Part shown: positions 55,500 through 64,000 of the stretch, one piece after another
Position numbering within the stretch: position 1 is the stretch's first letter
Layout: each line of letters begins with the position of its first letter
NCBI GenBank assembly: GCA_020831805.1
Contig: JAFIFX010000011.1
Span: 4,648 to 68,647 of the forward strand
From: Planctomycetota bacterium
GTDB lineage: Bacteria > Planctomycetota > Phycisphaerae > Phycisphaerales > UBA1924
Direction of reading: 5' to 3'
DNA length: 64,000 bases
The notes under the pieces: model-generated
The model's database searches: none
What the model was told of the DNA's origin: nothing
Seen by the model: the letters and a program-made list of their open reading frames with translations, nothing else
Position numbers and translations under genes: made by a program

Positions 55500-55559
55500 C
55501 GCGCAACCCGGCGTCACGACGCCCGAAAAGTACTGAAAATCATGAGTCAAACGACCCAC

Positions 55560-55600
55560 GGAGGACCCGGAACCGGGTCCTCCTTTGATTGGTTTTCATT
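55560..55600 (+). terminator. Rho-independent terminator of the nuoJ-N operon
   Basis: GGAGGACCCGG-AA-CCGGGTCCTCC (11-bp perfect stem) followed by TTTGATTGGTTTTCATT. Confidence 0.8.
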
Positions 55601-55679
55601 GGGCAATCGCCCGATTTCACCCCAGAGGAGAACCACTCGGCACACTGGTCGTTTTAACGGAGCGATAGCATCCATCGCA

Positions 55680-56369
55680 ATGAACCTAAACAAACAAACA
55701 CATCCGTCTGTCTCACCCTCCGAACTCGACCCGTCTGATCTGGCCAGCGGCCTGCTGACCGATCCGCACGCTGGCGTATCGATCGCGAAGATCTCGGGCG
55801 AACTGCTCTTCGTCAACGACCAGGCCGCCCGGATCTTCGTGGGCGATGACTCCAACGCGGAGACGGTCGCCGGCCGTTCGCTCTGGAGCCTGTTCCCCGA
55901 GAACCTCGTCCGCGAGTGGTCCGATTTCGGGGCCAGGGTTCTGCGTTCGGGCGAGCCGGCCATGGTCCGGACGATCTGGCACGGCCGCCAGGTGCTCAGC
56001 TGGGTCACCCCCCTCGACGCCGGCGCGCCGGCCGCCGAAGCCCGCCTGCTGGTCAGCTCCCGCTATTCCTGCGGCATGACCTGCTGCGGCGAGGACGACC
56101 AGTCCCGCTTCGCCATGTACGAGACCAGCTCGGTCAGCCTGGGCGACCTGGACATCCTCTCCCCGCGTGAACTCGAGGTGCTCGCCCTGGTCGGCCAGGG
56201 CCTCTCGATCAAGGAGATCGCGGCGATGCTCCACCGCTCGGAGAAGACCATCCAGAACCACCGCGACTCGATCGGGGCCAAGCTTGGCCTGGCCAACCGG
56301 GTCCATGTGGCCGCGGTCGCCCGCCGGGCCGGTCTCACCCAGGCCGACGCTGCCAAGAAGCGCATCTGA
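55680..56369 (+). CDS. PAS-domain LuxR-family transcriptional regulator
   Basis: C-terminal LSPRELEVLALVGQGLSIKEIAAMLHRSEKTIQNHRDSIGAKLG. ATG at 55680 was chosen because the upstream ATG at 55542 would read through the nuo terminator. TAGCAT lies 8 nt upstream. Confidence 0.8.
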   Translation: MNLNKQTHPSVSPSELDPSDLASGLLTDPHAGVSIAKISGELLFVNDQAARIFVGDDSNAETVAGRSLWSLFPENLVREWSDFGARVLRSGEPAMVRTIWHGRQVLSWVTPLDAGAPAAEARLLVSSRYSCGMTCCGEDDQSRFAMYETSSVSLGDLDILSPRELEVLALVGQGLSIKEIAAMLHRSEKTIQNHRDSIGAKLGLANRVHVAAVARRAGLTQADAAKKRI

Positions 56370-56543: not shown

Positions 56544-57233
56544 ATGAACCCGACCGCCGACCACGGCTCATCCGAAAAACACCCCCCGCCGGACGCCCGG
56601 GTTTTGTGGGATGTCATGACGAAGGACCCGACCGCCGGGGTGGTCATCTGTGATCTCGACGGCAAGGTCGTCTGGGGCAACGAGCGTTGTTTCCGCATCT
56701 ACCTCGGCCCGGAGGCCAGGTCCGGCGATGTGATCGGCAAGACCTGGAAGGAACTGGGCTTCCCCGATCCGTGGATCGAGGAACGCCTGCAGATCTTCCG
56801 CGAGATCAAGCAGACCGGCGAGCCGGTGCTGATCCGGACGATCTGGCGCGGCAGCCAGGTGCTGGCCTGGGTCTACCCGCTGCCGCCCGACGACGAGTGC
56901 GAGACGGACTGCTTCCTGGTCGTCTCGCGCACCTCGGAGGCGGACATCAACGAGCTGGGCCAGGATGTGGCCGGCAAGGTCAAAGTCTCCGGCGTGGCGC
57001 GCCTGGGCGAGCTGGACGCGCTCTCGCCGCGCGAGCTGGAGGTGCTGGCGCTGCTCGGCCAGGGGCTGACGATCAAGGAGATCGCCAAGATCCTGTTCCG
57101 CTCGGAGAAGACCGTCGGGCGCCACCGCGACTCGATCGGGGCCAAGCTGGGTCTGAGCAACAAGGTGGACCTGGCCGAGGTCGCCCGGCGCGCGGGGCTG
57201 ACGGTCGAGGATGTCACGCGGGAGCGGGTGTGA
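56544..57233 (+). CDS. PAS-domain LuxR-family transcriptional regulator (paralog)
   Basis: LSPRELEVLALLGQGLTIKEIAKILFRSEKTVGRHRDSIGAKLG. The N-terminal PAS-like region is collinear with the upstream paralog. Confidence 0.8.
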   Translation: MNPTADHGSSEKHPPPDARVLWDVMTKDPTAGVVICDLDGKVVWGNERCFRIYLGPEARSGDVIGKTWKELGFPDPWIEERLQIFREIKQTGEPVLIRTIWRGSQVLAWVYPLPPDDECETDCFLVVSRTSEADINELGQDVAGKVKVSGVARLGELDALSPRELEVLALLGQGLTIKEIAKILFRSEKTVGRHRDSIGAKLGLSNKVDLAEVARRAGLTVEDVTRERV

Positions 57234-57469
57234 CCGGAAGCGACGGGGCGGGGAAGCGGCGGCGGTCATTCCGGCTCGACCGGCCCCAGTGCCGCTCGTG
57301 CGGCGGGTGTGCGTGCGGGGCGGCGCGGGTGGTCAAGACGCCGGTGAATCTGGTCCGGCTCGGTGTGTACACGATGATCGGGGCGGTGCTGGGGATGGGG
57401 CTCGGCCGGGCGCTCTGGGCGTGCCCGGGGTGCGGGGCGCGGTTCTGGGCGGGGGTGGACGGTGAGTGA
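57230..57469 (+). CDS. Possible small membrane protein with two CxxC pairs
   Basis: 79-aa frame. The GTG overlaps the LuxR stop (GTGTGA) and the 3' end overlaps the next start by 8 nt. CRSCGGCAC, a TM helix (LVRLGVYTMIGAVLGMGLG) and CPGCG. No other support. Confidence 0.3.
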   Translation: MTGSDGAGKRRRSFRLDRPQCRSCGGCACGAARVVKTPVNLVRLGVYTMIGAVLGMGLGRALWACPGCGARFWAGVDGE

Positions 57470-57971
57470 GGGGCCGGGCGTGGTTGCTCCGGCAGTGCCG
57501 CCGGATCGGAGAGCGGTCGAGCGTGCGTACAAGCCGCGGGAATCCGGTTGGGGCCGCTTCTGGGCGGTCTTCGGGGACATCGTGCTCGGGATGGCGTGGT
57601 GGTGGTACGACTGGCGGAAGCAAGGCGGGGTGGCGACCGAGCGGATGACGCCGCTGGCCGCGGCATTGCTGGGGCTCGTCGTGATGGCGGGGTTCGCGCT
57701 GGCCCTGTCCGGTCTCGGGCTGGAACCCAAGATCGTGGCGCTCGGGTCCGTTCTGTTGATCGGAACGCTCTGCCTCGCCGGCGCGGGTTTGACGACGAGG
57801 GCCGAACGCCGGGCGGCCCGTTCGCGGGCGTGTGCATGTCGCGCGTGCGGGTATGCGCTGCATGGGTTGCCGAGCGTGGGCGCGGTCGAGTCGGACGGGG
57901 CGCGGTACGAGATCGGTCCGGCGCGGTGCCCGGAGTGCGGCCAGGTCTGGCCGCGGGTGTTGCCGGGTTAG
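57462..57971 (+). CDS. Membrane protein with C-terminal CxxC...CPEC zinc ribbon
   Basis: GTG start. Helices (FWAVFGDIVLGMAWWWY, AALLGLVVMAGFALAL, ALGSVLLIGTLCLAGAGL) are followed by CRACGYALHGLP...ARCPECGQVW. Confidence 0.55.
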   Translation: MSEGPGVVAPAVPPDRRAVERAYKPRESGWGRFWAVFGDIVLGMAWWWYDWRKQGGVATERMTPLAAALLGLVVMAGFALALSGLGLEPKIVALGSVLLIGTLCLAGAGLTTRAERRAARSRACACRACGYALHGLPSVGAVESDGARYEIGPARCPECGQVWPRVLPG

Positions 57972-58339: not shown

Positions 58340-58377
58340 GCGACCGCGCGGACTGACCCCCCCAGCCCGCGGCTCAG
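58340..58377. repeat. REP-like element overlapping the recQ stop codon
   Basis: gcgaccgcgcggactga-cccccccagcc-cgcggctcag. Same termini as 26089-26119. Confidence 0.65.
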
Positions 58378-60266
58378 TCTTTGAGCGCGTGAAGGAAGGT
58401 TTCGCCGAAGGCTTCGAGCTTGGCGCGGCCGATGCCCTTGACCTCGAGCATGGCGTCGAGGCTCTCCGGGCGGACGCGGACGAGTTCCCGGAGGGTGGCG
58501 TCGGAGAAGACGACATAGGGCGGCACGGCCCGCTCGGTGGCGATCTCCATGCGGACCTGGCGCAGCTTCTCGAAGAGTTGTTTTTCCTCGAAGGACAGCG
58601 GGGCGGCGTCGGGCGTGTGGTCGCGCCGGCGGCGTTCGGACTTGGCGCTGCCGGTGCCGACGGGGCGGGCGAGGGGCACGGTTTCCTCGCCCTTCATGAC
58701 GGCCACGCCGCGGGGGCCGAAGCGGAGGGTCTCGAAGTGCCCGTCGATGACGCGCTCGAGGGCCTCGGCGGCGACGAGCTGGTCGATGAACGAGGCCAGG
58801 GCGGGCTTGCGGTGGTCCTTGAGCAGGGCGTAGACGGTCAGCTGGTCGTGGCGGGCGGCGCGGACGCGCTCGGTGTCGGCCCCGCGGAGGATATCCACGA
58901 TGTGCGCGACGCCGTAGCGCTGGTTGGTGCGGGCGACGGCGGAGAGGATGATCTGGCCGATGCGCTTGGAATCGCCCTCGGCCTCGGTCTCGCCCAGGCA
59001 GACATCGCAGGCGTTGCAGTGGGCGAGCCCCTCGGGCGGGGCGTACTTCTGGCCGAAGTGCTCGCTGAGCATGCGGTGGCGACAGCCCATGGCCGAGATC
59101 AGCCGGCGCATCTCGCGGACGAGGTTGAGCTGGGCCTCGGTGGATTCGGCGTCCGCGCCCATCTCGGCGTTGCTCATGCGGATGAGCCGTTCCCAGCGGG
59201 TCGCGTCGGACGGGTTGTAGAGCAGCAGGCACTCGGCCGGCTCGCCGTCGCGCCCGGCCCGCCCGGTCTCCTGCTGGTAGGCCTCGATGGACTTGGGCAT
59301 GGTGGCGTGGACGACCAGACGGACATTCGAGCGGTCGATGCCCATGCCGAAGGCGACGGTGGCGACGACGACATCCAGCGTCTCGTTGCTGAAGCGGTGC
59401 TCGACATCGCGCCGGGTTTTCTCGTTCAGCCCCGCGTGGTAGGCCTCGGCATTGATGCGGAGTTTCTGGAGCTGCTCGGCGAGGTTTTCCGTGTCCTTGC
59501 GGCTCAGGCAATAGACGATGGTGCCCCCGCCGTCGCCGGCGCGCTGGTGGGTGCGGACGGCCTCGGCGGTCTGCTCGGCGGCATCGCGCCGCGCGCGGAC
59601 GCGGTAGGTCAGGTTGGGCCGGTCGAAGGTACCCACGAGCACCTCGGCCTTCCCGTCGTCGCAGCCCACCCGCCCGAGGTTGAGCTGGCGGACGATGTCC
59701 TCGCGCACGCGTGGCGTGGCGGTGGCGGTGAAGGCCTGCATGGGCACGCGCGGCGCGACCTCGCGCAGTTCGGCCAGTCGCCGATACTCGGGGCGGAAGT
59801 CGTGGCCCCACTGGCTGATGCAGTGGGCCTCGTCCACGGCGATGGCCCCGAGCCGGTCGGCATCCGCGAGGCTGGCCAGAAACGACTTGAAGCCCGGCGT
59901 GACCACGCGTTCGGGGGCGGCCAGGACTAGATTGATCTCGCCCTGGACGAGCCGGCGGAGGATGGCTCTGGCCTCCTCGGCGTCGATGCCCGAATGGATG
60001 GCCGCGGCCGGGTAGCCGTTGAGTTCGAGCCCGCGGACCTGGTCGCGCATCAGGGCGATCAGCGGCGAGACGACGATGGTGGCCTTGCCGGTGACGAGCG
60101 GGGGGACCTGGTAGCAGAGGCTCTTGCCGCCGCCGGTGGGCAGCACGGTCAGGCAGTCCCGCCCGGCGACGCCGGCGGCGATGGCCGCGGACTGCATGGG
60201 GCGGAGCTCGCTGAACCCCCAGACGCGGGCGACGGCGTCCTGGATGGCGGGGGCGGCGGTGGTCAC
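58374..60266 (-). CDS. recQ: ATP-dependent DNA helicase RecQ
   Basis: LPTGGGKSLCYQ, DEAHCISQWGHDFRPEY, ATVAFGMGID, QETGRAGRDG, Zn-binding CRHR..C..CDVC, C-terminal HRDC. GTG start with TACCCT 6 nt upstream. Confidence 0.92.
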   Translation of the reverse strand: MTTAAPAIQDAVARVWGFSELRPMQSAAIAAGVAGRDCLTVLPTGGGKSLCYQVPPLVTGKATIVVSPLIALMRDQVRGLELNGYPAAAIHSGIDAEEARAILRRLVQGEINLVLAAPERVVTPGFKSFLASLADADRLGAIAVDEAHCISQWGHDFRPEYRRLAELREVAPRVPMQAFTATATPRVREDIVRQLNLGRVGCDDGKAEVLVGTFDRPNLTYRVRARRDAAEQTAEAVRTHQRAGDGGGTIVYCLSRKDTENLAEQLQKLRINAEAYHAGLNEKTRRDVEHRFSNETLDVVVATVAFGMGIDRSNVRLVVHATMPKSIEAYQQETGRAGRDGEPAECLLLYNPSDATRWERLIRMSNAEMGADAESTEAQLNLVREMRRLISAMGCRHRMLSEHFGQKYAPPEGLAHCNACDVCLGETEAEGDSKRIGQIILSAVARTNQRYGVAHIVDILRGADTERVRAARHDQLTVYALLKDHRKPALASFIDQLVAAEALERVIDGHFETLRFGPRGVAVMKGEETVPLARPVGTGSAKSERRRRDHTPDAAPLSFEEKQLFEKLRQVRMEIATERAVPPYVVFSDATLRELVRVRPESLDAMLEVKGIGRAKLEAFGETFLHALKD

Positions 60267-60331: not shown

Positions 60332-61675
60332 TCAGGGATCGGGGTTCGGAGCCGGCGGGACGGGGGTGAGCACGCCGCCGGAGCCGTCGGGGAAGACCAG
60401 TTCCATCGTCCCGTCGGGGTGGGTGATGAGTTGGACGGGCGGCGGCTGGAGGTCCGGGGCGGCGTGGCGGAGGCGGCCCAAGTCCTCGGGGAAGAGCGGC
60501 TCGGTGGGGACGGTCAGGTCGAAGATTTCGTCCTCCCGTTGAACCGAGAGCGTGATCTCCGGCGGTGGATCGAACATCCAGCCGGTCCGGTCGACGAAAT
60601 CGGGGTCCCCGACGGGCACGCCGTCGATGGCGAGCACACGGTCGTTGGGTAGCAAGCCGGCGCGGGCGGCGGGAGAGTCGGCGGCGATGGACGCGAGGGT
60701 GAAGACGCCGTCATGGATGATTTGCATGTTGATGCCGATGCCGGCGAACTGCGGCGCGGTCACGCGGTGCTGGGCCGGATCGGTGAGCGTGAAGGCGGCC
60801 AGGCCGGAGCGGGGATCGAGCCGGACGCGGAAGAGACGGAGGAGGCGGTGGCCGATGAGGTGATGGTGGGTGTCGACATGGGCAACGGCCCGCTCGATGG
60901 TGACGCCGCCGATGGCGACCGGGCCGCGGAGCGGGGCGGTCTGTTCACGCAGGACCGTGCCGGAGAGGGACGAGCCGAGCTCGAGCGCCCGCGCCACATC
61001 GCGGTGGGCCCATTCATCAGAGGTCGAGGCGAGCAGGTGCAGGTGCGTCTCGCCGCCGCTGTCGATCTCGAACCACTCGGTCTGCAACGGTCGGCCTTCA
61101 TCGTCGTGGAGCGAGATCTGAACAGCCGGTGAGCCGACCCCTTCGCGCCGGAGCGGGACCGCGCCGTCGGTGTGCGGCGTGAGCCGTGCGGAAGTCAGGC
61201 GGACCCGCTGGTCCGGGTAATCCAGGTCCAGCGTGAAGGCGTCGAGGCCCGTGTAGCCGAGCAGGCCGTCGACGCGCAGACCGCTGAAACTTTCCTCGAA
61301 GATCGGTGTTGCGATTAGCGGGGCGGGACGCAGGGAGAGCGGCCCGACGGCGATCTCCTCGGCGTACAGAAGCGGGAAGCGGGTCGTGACACCGGCGATG
61401 TCCGTGACATTGACCCGTCCCGCGGTCTTCAGTCCGAGCTCTTCGACGATGCGTGGCGCCAGGCCGCTGATGAAGGCGCCGGTGTCCAGGATCAGTCGGT
61501 AGGGCCCATGATCATTGATCATCGCCTCGACGATGATCCACCCGTCGACGAACTCGGCGGGGAGCAGGACTTCCTGACCCTCGTTCGGATCAATGGTCGC
61601 GACCGGGAGACGCAGGGCGGGCGCGTGACAGCCGGCGAGCAGCAGGAGCACGAGCACGATGGATCGTTTGATCAT
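60332..61675 (-). CDS. Lipoprotein with two retropepsin-like aspartic-protease lobes and a PDZ domain
   Basis: Lipobox LLLLAGC. Lobe 1 YRLILDTGAFISG...DGLLGYTGLDAF. Lobe 2 WFEIDSGGETH...HLIGHRLLRLF. PDZ ADSPAARAGLLPNDRVLAIDGVPV. Confidence 0.7.
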   Translation of the reverse strand: MIKRSIVLVLLLLAGCHAPALRLPVATIDPNEGQEVLLPAEFVDGWIIVEAMINDHGPYRLILDTGAFISGLAPRIVEELGLKTAGRVNVTDIAGVTTRFPLLYAEEIAVGPLSLRPAPLIATPIFEESFSGLRVDGLLGYTGLDAFTLDLDYPDQRVRLTSARLTPHTDGAVPLRREGVGSPAVQISLHDDEGRPLQTEWFEIDSGGETHLHLLASTSDEWAHRDVARALELGSSLSGTVLREQTAPLRGPVAIGGVTIERAVAHVDTHHHLIGHRLLRLFRVRLDPRSGLAAFTLTDPAQHRVTAPQFAGIGINMQIIHDGVFTLASIAADSPAARAGLLPNDRVLAIDGVPVGDPDFVDRTGWMFDPPPEITLSVQREDEIFDLTVPTEPLFPEDLGRLRHAAPDLQPPPVQLITHPDGTMELVFPDGSGGVLTPVPPAPNPDP

Positions 61676-63015
61676 CCCTTGTCGTCCTTTGGAGATGCGG
61701 GGAGGAGAATCGTTCCCTCCGGGCTTTGGATCTCGAGGTGCGTCCCGTCCGGGCCTTCGATGATGCGCACGCCGGGCAGGGTCAGGTCCGGTCCGCGCGG
61801 GGTGGTGCGGGCGGGGTCGAAGAGCGGGGCGGGGGTCAGGGTCAGGTCGATCATGATCTCGTCGCGGTCGAGCGTGAGGACGACCGGCGGCGCGTCCGGC
61901 TCCGGGTGATTGTCCAGTTGCCCGCCCGCTTCGACGGGCACGCCGTCGATCGCGTAGATCAGATCGCCCGGCTGCACCCCGGCGAGTTCGGCGGGCGAGC
62001 CGCGGGCGATCGAGAGGATGAGGTACGAATCGGCCAGTTTGGCCACGCTGGTGATGCCAAGCGTGAACGGCTGCGGCAGGGCGATGCGATCAGCGGCCGG
62101 ATCGGCGGGGGTGATGGCGGCCAGGCCGCCGCGGTTGTCGATGCGGACGCGGAACTGGCGGAGCAGCTCGTGGCCGAGGAGGTTGTGCGCCTTGTCGATC
62201 TCCGCGACCGTGTCGGTCAGGCGCGTCCCCGCGATGAGCAGGTCGCCCCGGACCGGGGCGATGGTCCGTTCGGTGCGGATGCCTGCCAGCCCGATCGCGG
62301 TTCCGCCCTGGGCGGCCAGGTCCGTGTTCGCCCAGCGATGGCTGTGGGGCTGTTCGAACGAGATCAGCAGCTCCCCGCCCGTGTCGATGGCCATCCAGAG
62401 CGCATTGCGGGGCCGGTCCCCGGCCATGCGGCGTAGACGGACCTCGGGCGTGTCGTTGCGGATGCGGCGCAGCGGCGTGATACCCGGCTCGCCCGGGCGG
62501 AGACGCTCCGTGCTGACCCGGACGGATTCGGCGGGGTAATCCAGATCCAGCGTCAGCCGGTCGAAGCCGGGGTAGCCGAGCACGCCGTCGACCCCCTGTC
62601 GCGCGAGCAGGTCGCGCAGGTTGTCGCTGATGATGAACGGGACCCGCGTCAGCGTCAGCGGGCCGATGACGGCGTGCTCGGCGAGGCCGACCTGGTGCCG
62701 CTCACGAAAGCCGCCGGAATCGGTGATGTTGGCCTCGAAGGCGGGCTCGATGCCGAGCGCCTCGGCCAGCTCCGTCCCCAGCACGCCGTAGACGGCCCCG
62801 GTGTCGAGGATGAGCCGGTAGGGGCCGCGGCCGTTGATGGTTGTTTCGACGATGATCCAGCCGTCGTTGAACTCGGCGGGCAGGGTCGCGTGCGCGGCGC
62901 CGTCCGCGATGCTCGGTTCGGTGGGCGAGATCCAGACCGCCCGGACGCAGCCGGCGAGCAGGCACACGGCGAGCAGGAGCGACAGGGTCCGGATCAGGCG
63001 GCTGGGGGTCGGCAT
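61672..63015 (-). CDS. Lipoprotein with two retropepsin-like lobes and a PDZ domain (paralog, also 447 aa)
   Basis: Lipobox CLLAGC. YRLILDTGAVYGV...DGVLGYPGFDRL. WMAIDTGGELL...NLLGHELLRQF. PDZ RGSPAELAGVQPGDLIYAIDGVPV. ATGA overlap with the downstream paralog. Confidence 0.7.
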   Translation of the reverse strand: MPTPSRLIRTLSLLLAVCLLAGCVRAVWISPTEPSIADGAAHATLPAEFNDGWIIVETTINGRGPYRLILDTGAVYGVLGTELAEALGIEPAFEANITDSGGFRERHQVGLAEHAVIGPLTLTRVPFIISDNLRDLLARQGVDGVLGYPGFDRLTLDLDYPAESVRVSTERLRPGEPGITPLRRIRNDTPEVRLRRMAGDRPRNALWMAIDTGGELLISFEQPHSHRWANTDLAAQGGTAIGLAGIRTERTIAPVRGDLLIAGTRLTDTVAEIDKAHNLLGHELLRQFRVRIDNRGGLAAITPADPAADRIALPQPFTLGITSVAKLADSYLILSIARGSPAELAGVQPGDLIYAIDGVPVEAGGQLDNHPEPDAPPVVLTLDRDEIMIDLTLTPAPLFDPARTTPRGPDLTLPGVRIIEGPDGTHLEIQSPEGTILLPASPKDDKG

Positions 63016-63131
63016 GACGGGGCATGATTGGCACGCCGGGCTCGTCGGGCATGGTGGAACGCCCTGTGAACTGGTGTGATCATCCGGGTTTCTCTGGCGT
63101 CCGGCCTGGATCTCGGGTATCCTCCACGAGC

Positions 63132-63683
63132 ATGCCCGTCCGCCCCGACCGACCGCTGGAACCGCCCCCCGGGCACCTCAAGACCCGGGAGGGGTTGCGT
63201 GCGGGCGGGGCGGTGCTCGCGTTGATCGGCGGGGTGTGCGTGGTGATCGCGTTCGTGGATTTCATCAGCGCGTTCGCAAGTTTCCAGTCGGCGGGGGCGC
63301 ATGGACGGGCGCCGACACTGTTCTGGCTGTTCTTTGTCGGGGCACCGCTGCTGGGCCTTGGGCTGGCCATGCTCAAGTTCGGGTACATGGGGGTGGTGGC
63401 GAAGTACGCCACGCGCGAGGGAGCGCCCGCGGCGGCGGAGGGGATCAACCGGGTGGGCATGGGCGCCCGGCCGGGGATCCGTGCGGCGGCGAGCGCGGCG
63501 GCCGCCGGGATGCGCGATGCGTCGGCATCCATGCCCTGCCCGGGCTGCGGCGAGCCGCAGGCGTCGGACGCGCGGTTCTGCAACGGCTGCGGGGCGGCGA
63601 TGGGGCCCGTGTGCGTGGCCTGCGGGGCGGCGGGCAGCGCGGGCGCACGCTTCTGCAATCAGTGCGGGGCGGGGCTGGGCTGA
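63132..63683 (+). CDS. Membrane protein with C-terminal double zinc ribbon
   Basis: ATG at 63132 with TATCCT 8 nt upstream (ORF opens at 63024). Two TM helices, then CPGCGEPQASDARFCNGCGAAMGPVCVACGAAGSAGARFCNQCG. Confidence 0.6.
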   Translation: MPVRPDRPLEPPPGHLKTREGLRAGGAVLALIGGVCVVIAFVDFISAFASFQSAGAHGRAPTLFWLFFVGAPLLGLGLAMLKFGYMGVVAKYATREGAPAAAEGINRVGMGARPGIRAAASAAAAGMRDASASMPCPGCGEPQASDARFCNGCGAAMGPVCVACGAAGSAGARFCNQCGAGLG

Positions 63684-64000
63684 GCGGCGTCGGGCTCCGG
63701 GCGTGCGATGGCCAGGCGTTCCGGCGGTGAATCCGGGGGCGTGAACGCGACCAGCCGCGAAGGGCCGTCGATCCGGACACGGAAGCCCTCGAGCACGCGA
63801 TAGCCGAGGAGGTTCTGCGCCTCGTTGATCGTTGCTGGAACGCCGGGGATGCTGGTCTGCCCGACGATCAGCCGCCCGTTGATCGGGGCCCCGAACACGA
63901 CGCGGGACGAGCGGTGCAGCCCCGCGTTGAAGTCCACGGGCCGGGCGGTGTCGGCGAGCGTGTGCATGCGGGTGGCGTCGGCGTCGAGCCGCAGGAAAGT
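63659..64000 (-). CDS. Partial third retropepsin-like paralog: 3' part only, no PDZ, degenerate second-lobe motif
   Basis: The frame is open to the window edge. ...FLRLDADAT..NLLGYRVLEGFRVRIDGPSRLVAF is collinear with lobe 2 of the two full paralogs, but the protein ends about 25 aa later. Confidence 0.5.
   Translation of the reverse strand, partial: TFLRLDADATRMHTLADTARPVDFNAGLHRSSRVVFGAPINGRLIVGQTSIPGVPATINEAQNLLGYRVLEGFRVRIDGPSRLVAFTPPDSPPERLAIARPEPDAAQPSPAPH

Follow-up and report, generated by a model that had tools for sequence, protein, structure and literature searches.

Can a single bacterial polypeptide combine two retropepsin-like lobes into a pepsin-like aspartic protease, couple it to a PDZ domain and be held at the membrane by a lipid? 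This question is raised by two neighboring genes in a bacterium of the Phycisphaerales (Planctomycetota), found in a stretch of 64,000 nucleotides (the window). We conclude that their products, copies 1 and 2, are a real, uncharacterised variant of the clan AA aspartic proteases. It is probable, taking all the data together, that they are lipid-anchored extracytoplasmic two-lobe endopeptidases of this clan, built as an intrachain pseudo-dimer and assisted by the PDZ domain.

Gene organization

The open reading frames bear out the original prediction of two overlapping paralogs, each of exactly 447 aa. An ATGA overlap joins the two frames, which implies co-expression, and the products share 39% identity over 434 aa (E 4e-86). 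The paired arrangement is kept in the genomes L001 and L009, where the orthologs of copy 2 are 64% identical, and one protease copy only is present in L011 and in L003. The genes of the locus are:

60332-61675, minus strand: copy 1, 447 aa, predicted lipoprotein with a two-lobed retropepsin-like aspartic protease, a PDZ domain and a C-terminal tail (ORF, Pfam, AF2)
61672-63015, minus strand: copy 2, paralog of copy 1, 447 aa (ORF, Pfam, pairwise comparison)
63132-63683, plus strand: zinc-ribbon membrane protein, 183 aa (Pfam DZR, 38.6 bits; hydropathy)
63659-64000, minus strand: copy 3, C-terminal 113 codons; the gene continues past the window end

Two putative catalytic lobes in one chain

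The lobes and their motifs are located as follows:

61172-61570, minus strand: copy 1 lobe 1, residues 36-168 (Pfam PF13650 over residues 49-141)
61475-61486, minus strand: copy 1 lobe 1 putative catalytic DTGA, residues 64-67 (sequence)
61253-61264, minus strand: copy 1 lobe 1 psi-loop LLGY, residues 138-141 (sequence)
60776-61162, minus strand: copy 1 lobe 2, residues 172-300 (hhalign of lobe 1 versus lobe 2; matches of the two-lobe model)
61052-61063, minus strand: copy 1 lobe 2 putative catalytic DSGG, residues 205-208 (sequence)
60848-60859, minus strand: copy 1 lobe 2 LIGH, residues 273-276 (sequence)
62794-62805, minus strand: copy 2 DTGA, residues 71-74 (sequence)
62374-62385, minus strand: copy 2 DTGG, residues 211-214 (sequence)
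62170-62181, minus strand: copy 2 LLGH, residues 279-282 (sequence)

Clan AA proteases carry the motif D-(T/S)-G-(A/S/T/G) and, downstream of it, a psi loop of the form hydrophobic-hydrophobic-Gly, or hhG (PMC4140852). The proposal that each protein holds two retropepsin-type lobes, each with its own D(T/S)G and hhG, agrees with our data: the pair of motifs is present in every lobe of copies 1 and 2 and is kept in 68-70 of 70 diverse homologs, with identity down to ~22%. In lobe 1 these homologs preserve D64 (70/70), T65 (68/70) and G66 (69/70), and in lobe 2 D205 (69/70), S/T206 (68/70) and G207 (69/70).

The profile search suggested along with the original prediction places lobe 1 above the gathering cut-off of Pfam PF13650 Asp_protease_2 (24.3 bits) in copy 1 (43.4 bits), copy 2 (47.8 bits) and the full protein of copy 3 (71.8 bits). 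Lobe 2 alone was matched by no Pfam model; it is tied to lobe 1 by hhalign, which with the 70-sequence alignment gave a probability of 98.8% (E 1.4e-16) over 115 columns, with DTG falling on DSG and hhG on hhG. In the homologs P0174, P0177 and P0045 the Asp_protease_2 profile matches both lobes. Judged by these comparisons, lobe 2 is a diverged copy of lobe 1. The pepsin model PF00026 (Asp, family A1) had no match at E <= 1 in any copy, and the cut-off of NCBIfam TIGR02281 clan_AA_DTGA (57.95 bits) was not reached, with 16.3 bits (E 0.0084) for copy 2 and no match for copy 1.

One could argue that such proteins keep a pepsin-like fold without catalytic activity and serve for binding or as scaffolds, similar to the plant TAXI/EDGP inhibitors and Basic 7S globulin, and that their real function is peptide binding by the PDZ domain. 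Lobe 2 is indeed strongly diverged, and the non-enzymatic pepsin-fold structures 3aup and 3vlb are among the Foldseek matches of our model. However, the D(T/S)G triad and the hhG glycine of either lobe are near-invariant across the same 70 sequences, which is the pattern expected under purifying selection on an active site, and inactive pepsin-fold proteins typically lack one or both aspartates. We consider the dead scaffold distinctly improbable; as two-lobe endopeptidases, the copies would be catalytically active.

Predicted structure

The AF2 model of full-length copy 1 has a pLDDT of 87.9 and a pTM of 0.82, and the model of the two lobes has a pLDDT of 93.4 and a pTM of 0.90. When the two-lobe model was compared with the PDB by Foldseek, the top match was 9IY9 (TMq 0.72). 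Taken as a rigid whole, the model also fits renin, chymosin and pepsin (TMq 0.60-0.67), with lower values for other plasmepsins and HAP (TMq 0.47-0.65); further matches are the HIV-1 protease dimer tethered into a single chain (TMt 0.65) and the C-terminal domain of Rv0977 (TMt 0.57). Whole-chain superposition scores of this kind are not attainable by a single lobe. Some proteins with the pepsin fold are non-enzymes, and two of these, Basic 7S globulin and the xyloglucanase inhibitor, also occur among our Foldseek matches.

The single-chain, pepsin-like bilobal arrangement suggested for these proteins is thus what the model predicts, by its global superposition on pepsins and on the tethered HIV-1 protease. 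The outcomes named beforehand as speaking against it, that is motifs lying far apart or in non-protease folds and lobes unrelated to aspartic proteases, were not what the superposition and the profiles gave.

A different arrangement can be imagined, where no intrachain pairing takes place and lobe 1 homodimerises, or copy 1 pairs with copy 2, as in classical retropepsins, while lobe 2 is accessory. The characterised bacterial enzymes APRc (PMC4140852) and RloA (PMC12239564) are homodimers, and the translational coupling of copies 1 and 2 would suit a heteromer. However, AF2 puts the lobes together as an intramolecular pseudo-dimer (pTM 0.90), this arrangement fits both monomeric pepsins and the HIV protease dimer in its tethered form, and lobe 2 keeps its D(S/T)G and hhG in 69/70 homologs, which would be unexplained for a mere accessory domain. 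Additionally, a heteromer of copies 1 and 2 is not obligatory, since L011 and L003 have a single protease copy. Dimerization through lobe 1 is therefore highly improbable. In the intrachain pseudo-dimer that we prefer, two diverged lobes would pack against each other in place of the usual homodimer. Each lobe would supply one catalytic Asp, D64 and D205 being the pair of copy 1 and D71 and D211 that of copy 2, and the two would come together in the cleft between the lobes, like those of pepsin.

Predicted membrane anchor, PDZ domain and C-terminal tail

The regions outside the lobes are:

61628-61675, minus strand: copy 1 predicted signal peptide with lipobox LAGC, Cys16 (sequence and Cys conservation)
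60500-60763, minus strand: copy 1 PDZ domain, residues ~305-392 (Pfam PDZ_2, PDZ_6 and PDZ; PDB PDZ matches)
60731-60742, minus strand: copy 1 PDZ carboxylate-binding loop GIGI (sequence)
60335-60499, minus strand: copy 1 C-terminal tail, residues 393-447 (alignment A1)
62947-62958, minus strand: copy 2 lipobox LAGC, Cys23 (sequence)
61828-62085, minus strand: copy 2 PDZ domain (Pfam)

The LAGC lipobox reported at the start of both copies is confirmed. Taking a lipobox to be a signal peptide that ends in [LVI][ASTVI][GAS]C, we find in each copy a basic n-region, then a hydrophobic h-region and then LAGC, ending at Cys16 in copy 1 and at Cys23 in copy 2. The column of this cysteine is conserved in 21/21 homologs in one alignment and in 54/70 in a broader one. 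The lipoprotein pathway and sorting rules of Planctomycetota are poorly defined; going by the lipobox, the cysteine would be lipidated and would tether the enzyme to a membrane that faces the periplasm.

A PDZ domain followed by a tail of ~80 aa had been predicted next to the lobes; the domain was found by Pfam in both copies and the tail is present too, but its length is ~55 aa. The PDZ assignment combines a profile score above the cut-off (PDZ_2 40.0 and PDZ_6 36.7 bits in copy 1, PDZ_6 37.5 and PDZ 24.2 bits in copy 2) with a carboxylate-binding loop of the form x-hydrophobic-G-hydrophobic, which is GIGI in copy 1 and TLGI in copy 2 and whose glycine (G314) is invariant among homologs. The PDB PDZ matches of copy 1 include CtpA and GRIP1. 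The tail has the motif PLFPEDL...PDLxPP...PDGT..FPDG, with F395, P407 and D408 invariant in alignment A1, and is modeled with a pLDDT of 80-92 up to residue ~430 in the full-length model. Only the Phycisphaerales subfamily has this tail; relatives of 380-400 aa are without it.

PDZ domains recruit substrates or gate activity in the periplasmic proteases Prc/CtpA, DegS/DegP and RseP. By analogy, the PDZ domain of copies 1 and 2, with its carboxylate-binding loop intact, would most likely recruit substrates via their C-termini or exposed hydrophobic strands, or gate the activity, and the enzymes may serve in processing or quality control of envelope proteins.

The third copy

Complete copy 3, read from the same contig (L005:8377-9357), is a protein of 326 aa with a lipobox and two lobes carrying DTGA and DTGG; it stops ~30 aa past lobe 2. 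The original prediction was correct in that the PDZ domain is absent, but it also held that LDADA replaces the second D(T/S)G. This substitution is rejected, because the full-length gene has a normal DTGG (...WALLDTGGQTFLRLDADA...) just outside the window, 5 residues upstream of its end. LDADA follows downstream of DTGG, and its counterpart in the alignment is 'LLAST' of copy 1; the misalignment arose because the window edge cut copy 3. The coupled paralogs and the PDZ-less copy 3 probably differ in substrate range.

The zinc-ribbon neighbor

The zinc-ribbon protein contains two hydrophobic segments, and its C-terminal part is a double zinc ribbon. Its gene was described as wedged convergently between copies 2 and 3, which is true toward copy 3, with 25 nt shared by the two 3' ends; relative to copy 2 the gene is divergent. 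One could suppose that the proteases are dedicated partners of this protein, for example site-1-type regulatory proteases that cleave it or are docked by it, with the PDZ domain sensing an envelope cue and the signal passing through the membrane. In four distinct genomes of Phycisphaeraceae (L005, L001/L010, L009 and L011) the zinc-ribbon gene lies next to one or more protease genes in divergent orientation, even where there is a single protease copy, and the evolutionary rate of its product follows that of the proteases (45-55% identity versus 88-90% for the neighboring RecQ). However, this synteny is confined to the one family, where RecQ is syntenic too, and no zinc-ribbon gene was found beside the protease homologs in UBA1924 (L003), L012 and L013. 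The protease family is also spread far wider than the pairing. Additionally, hydropathy suggests two TM segments with a loop of ~10-14 residues and zinc ribbons on the side of the N-terminus, presumably cytoplasmic, which would leave very little of the protein open to a periplasmic protease. A dedicated partnership is thus improbable.

Evolutionary meaning

Pepsins are thought to derive from a single retropepsin-like lobe through duplication and fusion. The two-lobe family shows such a step in bacteria: homology of its two lobes, with one another as well as with the single-lobe family, can still be detected, and the predicted fold is that of a pepsin-like monomer. Some related proteins have lobes that are 44-46% identical, which shows that lobe fusion occurred repeatedly. 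In a bolder reading, which we regard as unlikely, the family goes back to an independent and ancient duplication-fusion in bacteria, a living counterpart of the one from which pepsins are proposed to have arisen. It would have given a monomeric lipid-anchored protease that the PDZ domain (joined in Phycisphaerales by the tail) gates on envelope cues, and in this lineage the protease may form a trans-membrane signalling pair with the zinc-ribbon protein. The envelope PDZ-proteases known to us so far are serine (S1C, S41) and metallo (M50) enzymes; an aspartic unit joined to a PDZ domain and lipid anchor would be the fourth catalytic class among them.

Comparison with known systems

To our knowledge, every experimentally studied bacterial retropepsin-like protease (APRc, RloA/RimB and PerP of Caulobacter) is a single-lobe homodimer. 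These enzymes resemble copies 1 and 2 in the clan AA lobe with D(T/S)G(A/S) and psi loop and in being extracytoplasmic or membrane-associated, and APRc fits one lobe of our model with a TMt of 0.67. They consist, however, of one lobe without PDZ domain or lipobox, whereas copies 1 and 2 have two diverged lobes covalently joined. The statement that bacterial retropepsin-like proteins are usually single-lobe dimers agrees with the obligate homodimers APRc of Rickettsia (PDB 5C9F), which is anchored by TM helices (PMC4140852), and RloA/RimB of Pseudomonas (PMC12239564), where RloA is secreted by means of a signal peptide and RloA enzymes play a part in envelope stress.

Pepsin family A1 (pepsin, renin, chymosin, plasmepsins and the bacterial shewasins) shares the bilobed monomer with one Asp per lobe, but identity is 11-16%, and the lobes of our proteins have ~130 aa, lobe 1 being still seen by retropepsin-like models, compared with ~160-170 aa in pepsins. 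No propeptide is apparent in copies 1 and 2, and the PDZ domain and the predicted lipid anchor are extra. The C-terminal domain of M. tuberculosis PE_PGRS16 / Rv0977 (PDB 4EHC; Pfam PE-PGRS_C) likewise belongs to a bacterial cell envelope and forms two pepsin-like lobes in a single chain of comparable size (280 aa). It differs by its 13-14% identity, its PE/PGRS N-terminal context and its lack of a PDZ domain, and PE-PGRS_C gave no match to the window proteins.

Prc/CtpA (S41), DegP/DegS/HhoA (S1C) and RseP (M50) follow the same logic of a protease with a PDZ domain in the cell envelope, and the PDZ domains of CtpA, HhoA, DegP and RseP are the most similar to ours. These are serine or metallo enzymes, whereas copies 1 and 2 belong to the aspartic class, and the PDZ domain alone is in common: the scores fell well short of the cut-offs of the NCBIfam S41, S1C and M50 families and the matches cover only the PDZ region (e.g., prc, 25.7 versus 218.6 bits).

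The lobe-lobe-PDZ architecture is common in sequence databases, not rare: it occurs in 89 of the best 150 cluster representatives (50% identity), and the source databases call these relatives "aspartyl protease family protein". No experimental or biochemical study of it was found in the searched literature. The family being large and without assigned function, one characterised member would annotate many proteins. The closest structural match of both models (E 2.4e-12 and 5e-12) is 9IY9, a 'putative endopeptidase / Exported protein' of Bacteroides fragilis released on 2025-08-06, for which our literature search found no accompanying paper. It is, like copies 1 and 2, a bacterial exported single chain with two retropepsin-like lobes, and its lobe 1 FDTGAG aligns with their LDTGA. 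It differs in sequence (~16-17% identity; profile match to lobe 1 only, E 1.3e-5), and the match coordinates, with lobes beginning at residues ~150-168 of 420, suggest an extra N-terminal domain and apparently no C-terminal PDZ domain or tail. Since the architecture is already in databases and a related structure has been deposited, copies 1 and 2 belong to a family that is known but uncharacterised.

Architecture of the tandem paralogs

The finding described in the original prediction is real, and its structural interpretation holds upon comparison of profiles, modeling of the two lobes and examination of conservation. Copies 1 and 2, neighbouring lipobox proteins in which two retropepsin-like lobes are joined to a PDZ domain and a tail, are a widespread, database-annotated and unstudied variant of clan AA proteases. 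Their genes and motifs are as follows:

60332-61675, minus strand: copy 1, an open reading frame of exactly 447 codons, with DTGA (residues 64-67), LLGY (138-141), DSGG (205-208), LIGH (273-276) and GIGI (312-315)
61672-63015, minus strand: copy 2, an open reading frame of exactly 447 codons, with DTGA (residues 71-74), DTGG (211-214), LLGH (279-282) and TLGI (318-321)

Copy 2 ends and copy 1 starts within the same ATGA, and the two proteins show 39% identity across 434 residues (E 4e-86). An assembly artefact or a duplicated contig was rejected as the origin of the pair, since the identity is only at this level, 11 contigs carry the exact protein and the pair is kept in other genomes. The N-terminus of each protein is a signal sequence, basic and then hydrophobic, that closes in LAGC (Cys16 in copy 1, Cys23 in copy 2). 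Copy 2 harbors an extra DSGG at residues 99-102 (window 62710-62721, minus strand) within ITDSGGF of the predicted lobe 1 flap, where copy 1 has TDIAGV; this DSGG is non-catalytic and could mislead motif scans.

The PDZ domain is matched by three Pfam models and resembles those of CtpA/Prc, HhoA/DegP and RseP; within its carboxylate-binding loop, the Gly does not vary in the homolog alignment. The C-terminal tail of ~55 residues (PLFPEDL..LR...PDL.PP..I..PDGT.E..FPDG) is kept within the close subfamily, and in the full-length AF2 model its pLDDT is 80-92 as far as approximately residue 430. Relatives of 380-400 aa have no tail and end directly past the PDZ domain, typically in ...(L/I/V)(V/I)P; the alignment homologs P0045-P0077, among others, belong to this subfamily, and its hydrophobic C-terminus is conserved. 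This C-terminus could be a ligand of the protein's own PDZ domain (autoinhibition), and the Phycisphaerales subfamily has the ~55-aa tail in its place. A match of the tail to Tcp10_C (21.9 bits against a cut-off of 36, 16 residues) was discarded and put down to chance similarity with a short beta-hairpin motif.

Homology and conservation of the two lobes

The proposed relationship of the lobes to aspartic proteases is borne out by profile comparison. Lobe 1 matches Pfam Asp_protease_2 with 43.4 bits in copy 1 and 47.8 bits in copy 2 (cut-off 24.3 bits), and in both copies it also passes Pfam gag-asp_proteas. The isolated lobe 2 gave no Pfam match, and hhalign comparison of the two lobes detected nothing with a shallow alignment of 16 sequences. 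The internal duplication is seen only with an alignment of 70 diverse family members taken from the representative search (identity down to ~22%): the lobe 1 and lobe 2 profiles then match over 115 columns with a probability of 98.8% and an E-value of 1.4e-16, pairing LDTGA with IDSGs and GiLGy..F..LtLDYp with iG..Lr.FrV..D, so that lobe 2 is a homolog of lobe 1. In each of the homologs P0174, P0177 and P0045, Asp_protease_2 is found twice by Pfam itself. TIGR02281 was discarded as a family assignment, the score being 16 bits where the cut-off is 58.

One could argue that the copies are inactive binding proteins. This explanation is less well supported, as both D(T/S)G motifs and the psi-loop Gly are conserved in 68-70 of the 70 sequences: D64 in 70, T65 in 68, G66 in 69 and G140 in 70 for lobe 1; D205 in 69, S/T206 in 68, G207 in 69 and G275 in 68 for lobe 2 (numbering of copy 1). 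Such conservation is the pattern expected of a two-Asp active site under selection and argues against a dead scaffold.

Predicted fold

The full-length AF2 model has a mean pLDDT of 87.9 and a pTM of 0.82, and the model of the two lobes only (residues 30-300) has a pLDDT of 93.4 and a pTM of 0.90. The latter was used as the Foldseek query against the PDB.

Foldseek matches of the two-lobe model; TM scores are normalised on the whole two-lobe query (TMq) or the whole bilobed or dimeric target (TMt)
9IY9, a Bacteroides fragilis structure released in August 2025 under the name 'putative endopeptidase': TMq 0.72, E 5e-12
Renin, chymosin and pepsin: TMq 0.60-0.67
Plasmepsins and histo-aspartic protease (HAP): TMq 0.47-0.65
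Rv0977 of M. tuberculosis, pepsin-like domain at the C-terminus: TMt 0.57
Tethered single-chain dimer of HIV-1 protease: TMt 0.64-0.65

These scores cover the whole chain and superposition of one lobe is not sufficient to reach them; therefore, the lobes of the model are placed as in the pepsin monomer or the retropepsin dimer. The pepsin-like bilobal fold put forward originally is thus recovered in the model, which superposes whole on pepsins and on the tethered HIV-1 protease dimer. From the lobe arrangement and the motif positions it follows that the two Asp residues are predicted to lie face to face. In pepsin, the catalytic pair is D32/D215, whose O-delta atoms are about 3-4 A or less from each other and share a water site. 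The alternative that lobes pair between chains, and not within one, is less well supported than this intramolecular pairing.

A third paralog

63659-64000, minus strand: copy 3, the last 113 codons of an open reading frame cut by the window end

The window portion of copy 3 begins at TFLRL. The full protein, read from the same contig (L005:8377-9357, L005 being the window locus), has 326 aa and a GPGC lipobox; its lobe 1 carries FLFDTGAS and its lobe 2 carries ...WALLDTGGQTFLRLDADATRMH... Because of this reading, the claim that LDADA replaces the second D(T/S)G has to be withdrawn: the second catalytic DTGG is present just beyond the window edge, and LDADA lies downstream of it, where copy 1 has the aligned stretch LLAST. 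That copy 3 lacks a PDZ domain was noted correctly, as the protein ends ~30 residues past lobe 2 and its sole Pfam match is Asp_protease_2 (71.8 bits). The upstream third paralog varies between genomes, being 458 aa long with a PDZ domain in the homologous locus L001 versus 326 aa without it in the window genome, and these two proteins may be non-orthologous.

Gene neighbourhood

55542-56369, plus strand: first of two tandem regulators with a C-terminal GerE/LuxR HTH (57 bits)
56544-57233, plus strand: second regulator with a C-terminal GerE/LuxR HTH (57 bits); the uncharacterised N-terminal domains of the two are alike by eye
57462-57971, plus strand: small protein of 169 aa that has a hydrophobic stretch and, at the C-terminus, CxxC...CxxC (DZR 16.6 bits, below cut-off)
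58374-60266, minus strand: RecQ, 66 nt downstream of copy 1 and on the same strand
63132-63683, plus strand: zinc-ribbon protein of 183 aa in which two segments are hydrophobic and the C-terminal part is a double zinc ribbon (Pfam DZR 38.6 bits)

The zinc-ribbon gene is divergent from copy 2 and is overlapped by the 3' end of copy 3 by 25 nt. As the 169-aa protein is located beyond RecQ, small proteins of zinc-ribbon type are found on both flanks of the locus. The order of a divergent zinc-ribbon gene, one or two protease genes (a single one in L011) and RecQ is kept in four distinct Phycisphaeraceae genomes (loci L005, L001/L010, L009 and L011). Identity to the window proteins in the other Phycisphaeraceae is 88-90% for RecQ, 64% for copy 2 orthologs, 41-60% for copy 1 counterparts and 45-55% for the zinc-ribbon protein. 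This is a strong rate contrast within one syntenic block, with RecQ on one side and the protease paralogs and the zinc-ribbon protein on the other; therefore, the envelope genes evolve much faster than their housekeeping neighbour. The duplication that gave copies 1 and 2 is older than the split of these genomes.

The shared order could be taken to mean that the proteases are dedicated partners of the zinc-ribbon protein, which would be their substrate or partner. We regard this as a low-probability explanation. The single homolog of a UBA1924 genome (L003) adjoins flagellar genes and an unrelated 175-aa protein, the homologs of L012 and L013 stand in other contexts, and none of the three has a zinc-ribbon neighbour; thus the association is a lineage-restricted synteny. 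Additionally, hydropathy leaves a short loop only between the two predicted TM segments of the zinc-ribbon protein, so that little of it would be exposed to a periplasmic protease.

Two further genes differ between the loci. The window genome alone has a 512-aa SLFN_AlbA_2/HATPase_c_4 gene (L005:6032-7570) upstream of its protease array; the aconitase-glyoxalase interval of L001 lacks it, and the gene, with a possible role in defence or regulation, seems to have been inserted. In L001, an extra 118-aa gene (L001:9207-9563, minus strand), absent from the window, separates the zinc-ribbon gene from the copy 2 ortholog; its product has a heavy-metal-associated-like N-terminus (MSGEDCVNKV...) in a translation judged by eye.

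Distribution of the family

A word-indexed search gave 16 close relatives only, all with Asp_protease_2 and PDZ. The exhaustive profile search of 1.84 billion representatives gave 84 proteins at a limit of E <= 1e-30; when the limit was E <= 1e-10 there were 5618, a count that takes in PDZ-only matches. Among the 150 top-ranking representatives (clustered at 50% identity), 89 show an uninterrupted match that spans lobe 1 to the PDZ domain and another 10 have two lobes without PDZ. Profile search of genome contigs with the alignment of close relatives yielded only three loci, all from Phycisphaeraceae. The taxonomic breadth is read from the representative search and a few source names, such as 'predicted aspartyl protease', 'aspartyl protease family protein [Phycisphaerae bacterium]' and 'PDZ domain-containing protein [Gemmatimonadota bacterium]'.

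NCBIfam has no model for the lobe-lobe-PDZ family, and our literature search found no paper on a lipoprotein combining retropepsin-like/Asp_protease_2 (PF13650) and PDZ domains, nor on 9IY9. The family is therefore catalogued and numerous, and functionally and biochemically uncharacterised. The architecture, originally presented as unusual, stands as a real and unstudied variant of clan AA; its rarity does not, since it is widespread and annotated in databases and the related bilobed 9IY9 is already deposited.

Other fusions were met among the homologs: P0065 and P0084 (276-288 aa) join two Asp_protease_2 lobes of 44-46% identity, with no obvious signal peptide and no PDZ, and P0036 (863 aa) has four Asp_protease_2 lobes by Pfam, a PDZ domain and DUF1579. 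Therefore, judging by these sequences, retropepsin-like lobes seem to have undergone repeated duplication-fusion in bacteria.

Proposed function

We propose that copies 1 and 2 would act as membrane-tethered, extracytoplasmic, monomeric aspartic endopeptidases, presumably lipidated, with a catalytic dyad made of one Asp from each fused lobe. Pepstatin sensitivity need not mark such enzymes, since APRc, a bacterial relative, is insensitive to it. By analogy with Prc/CtpA, DegS and RseP, the PDZ domain may select or tether physiological substrates via C-terminal or exposed hydrophobic peptides, or it may control entry to the cleft. The paralogs might diversify specificity, and copy 3 would act without PDZ control. 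Such enzymes would bring aspartic catalysis into the PDZ-protease repertoire of the bacterial envelope. The characterised bacterial relatives APRc (PMC4140852) and RloA (PMC12239564) are single-lobe homodimers, and the fused lobes described here are relevant to how bilobed aspartic proteases arose by duplication and fusion.
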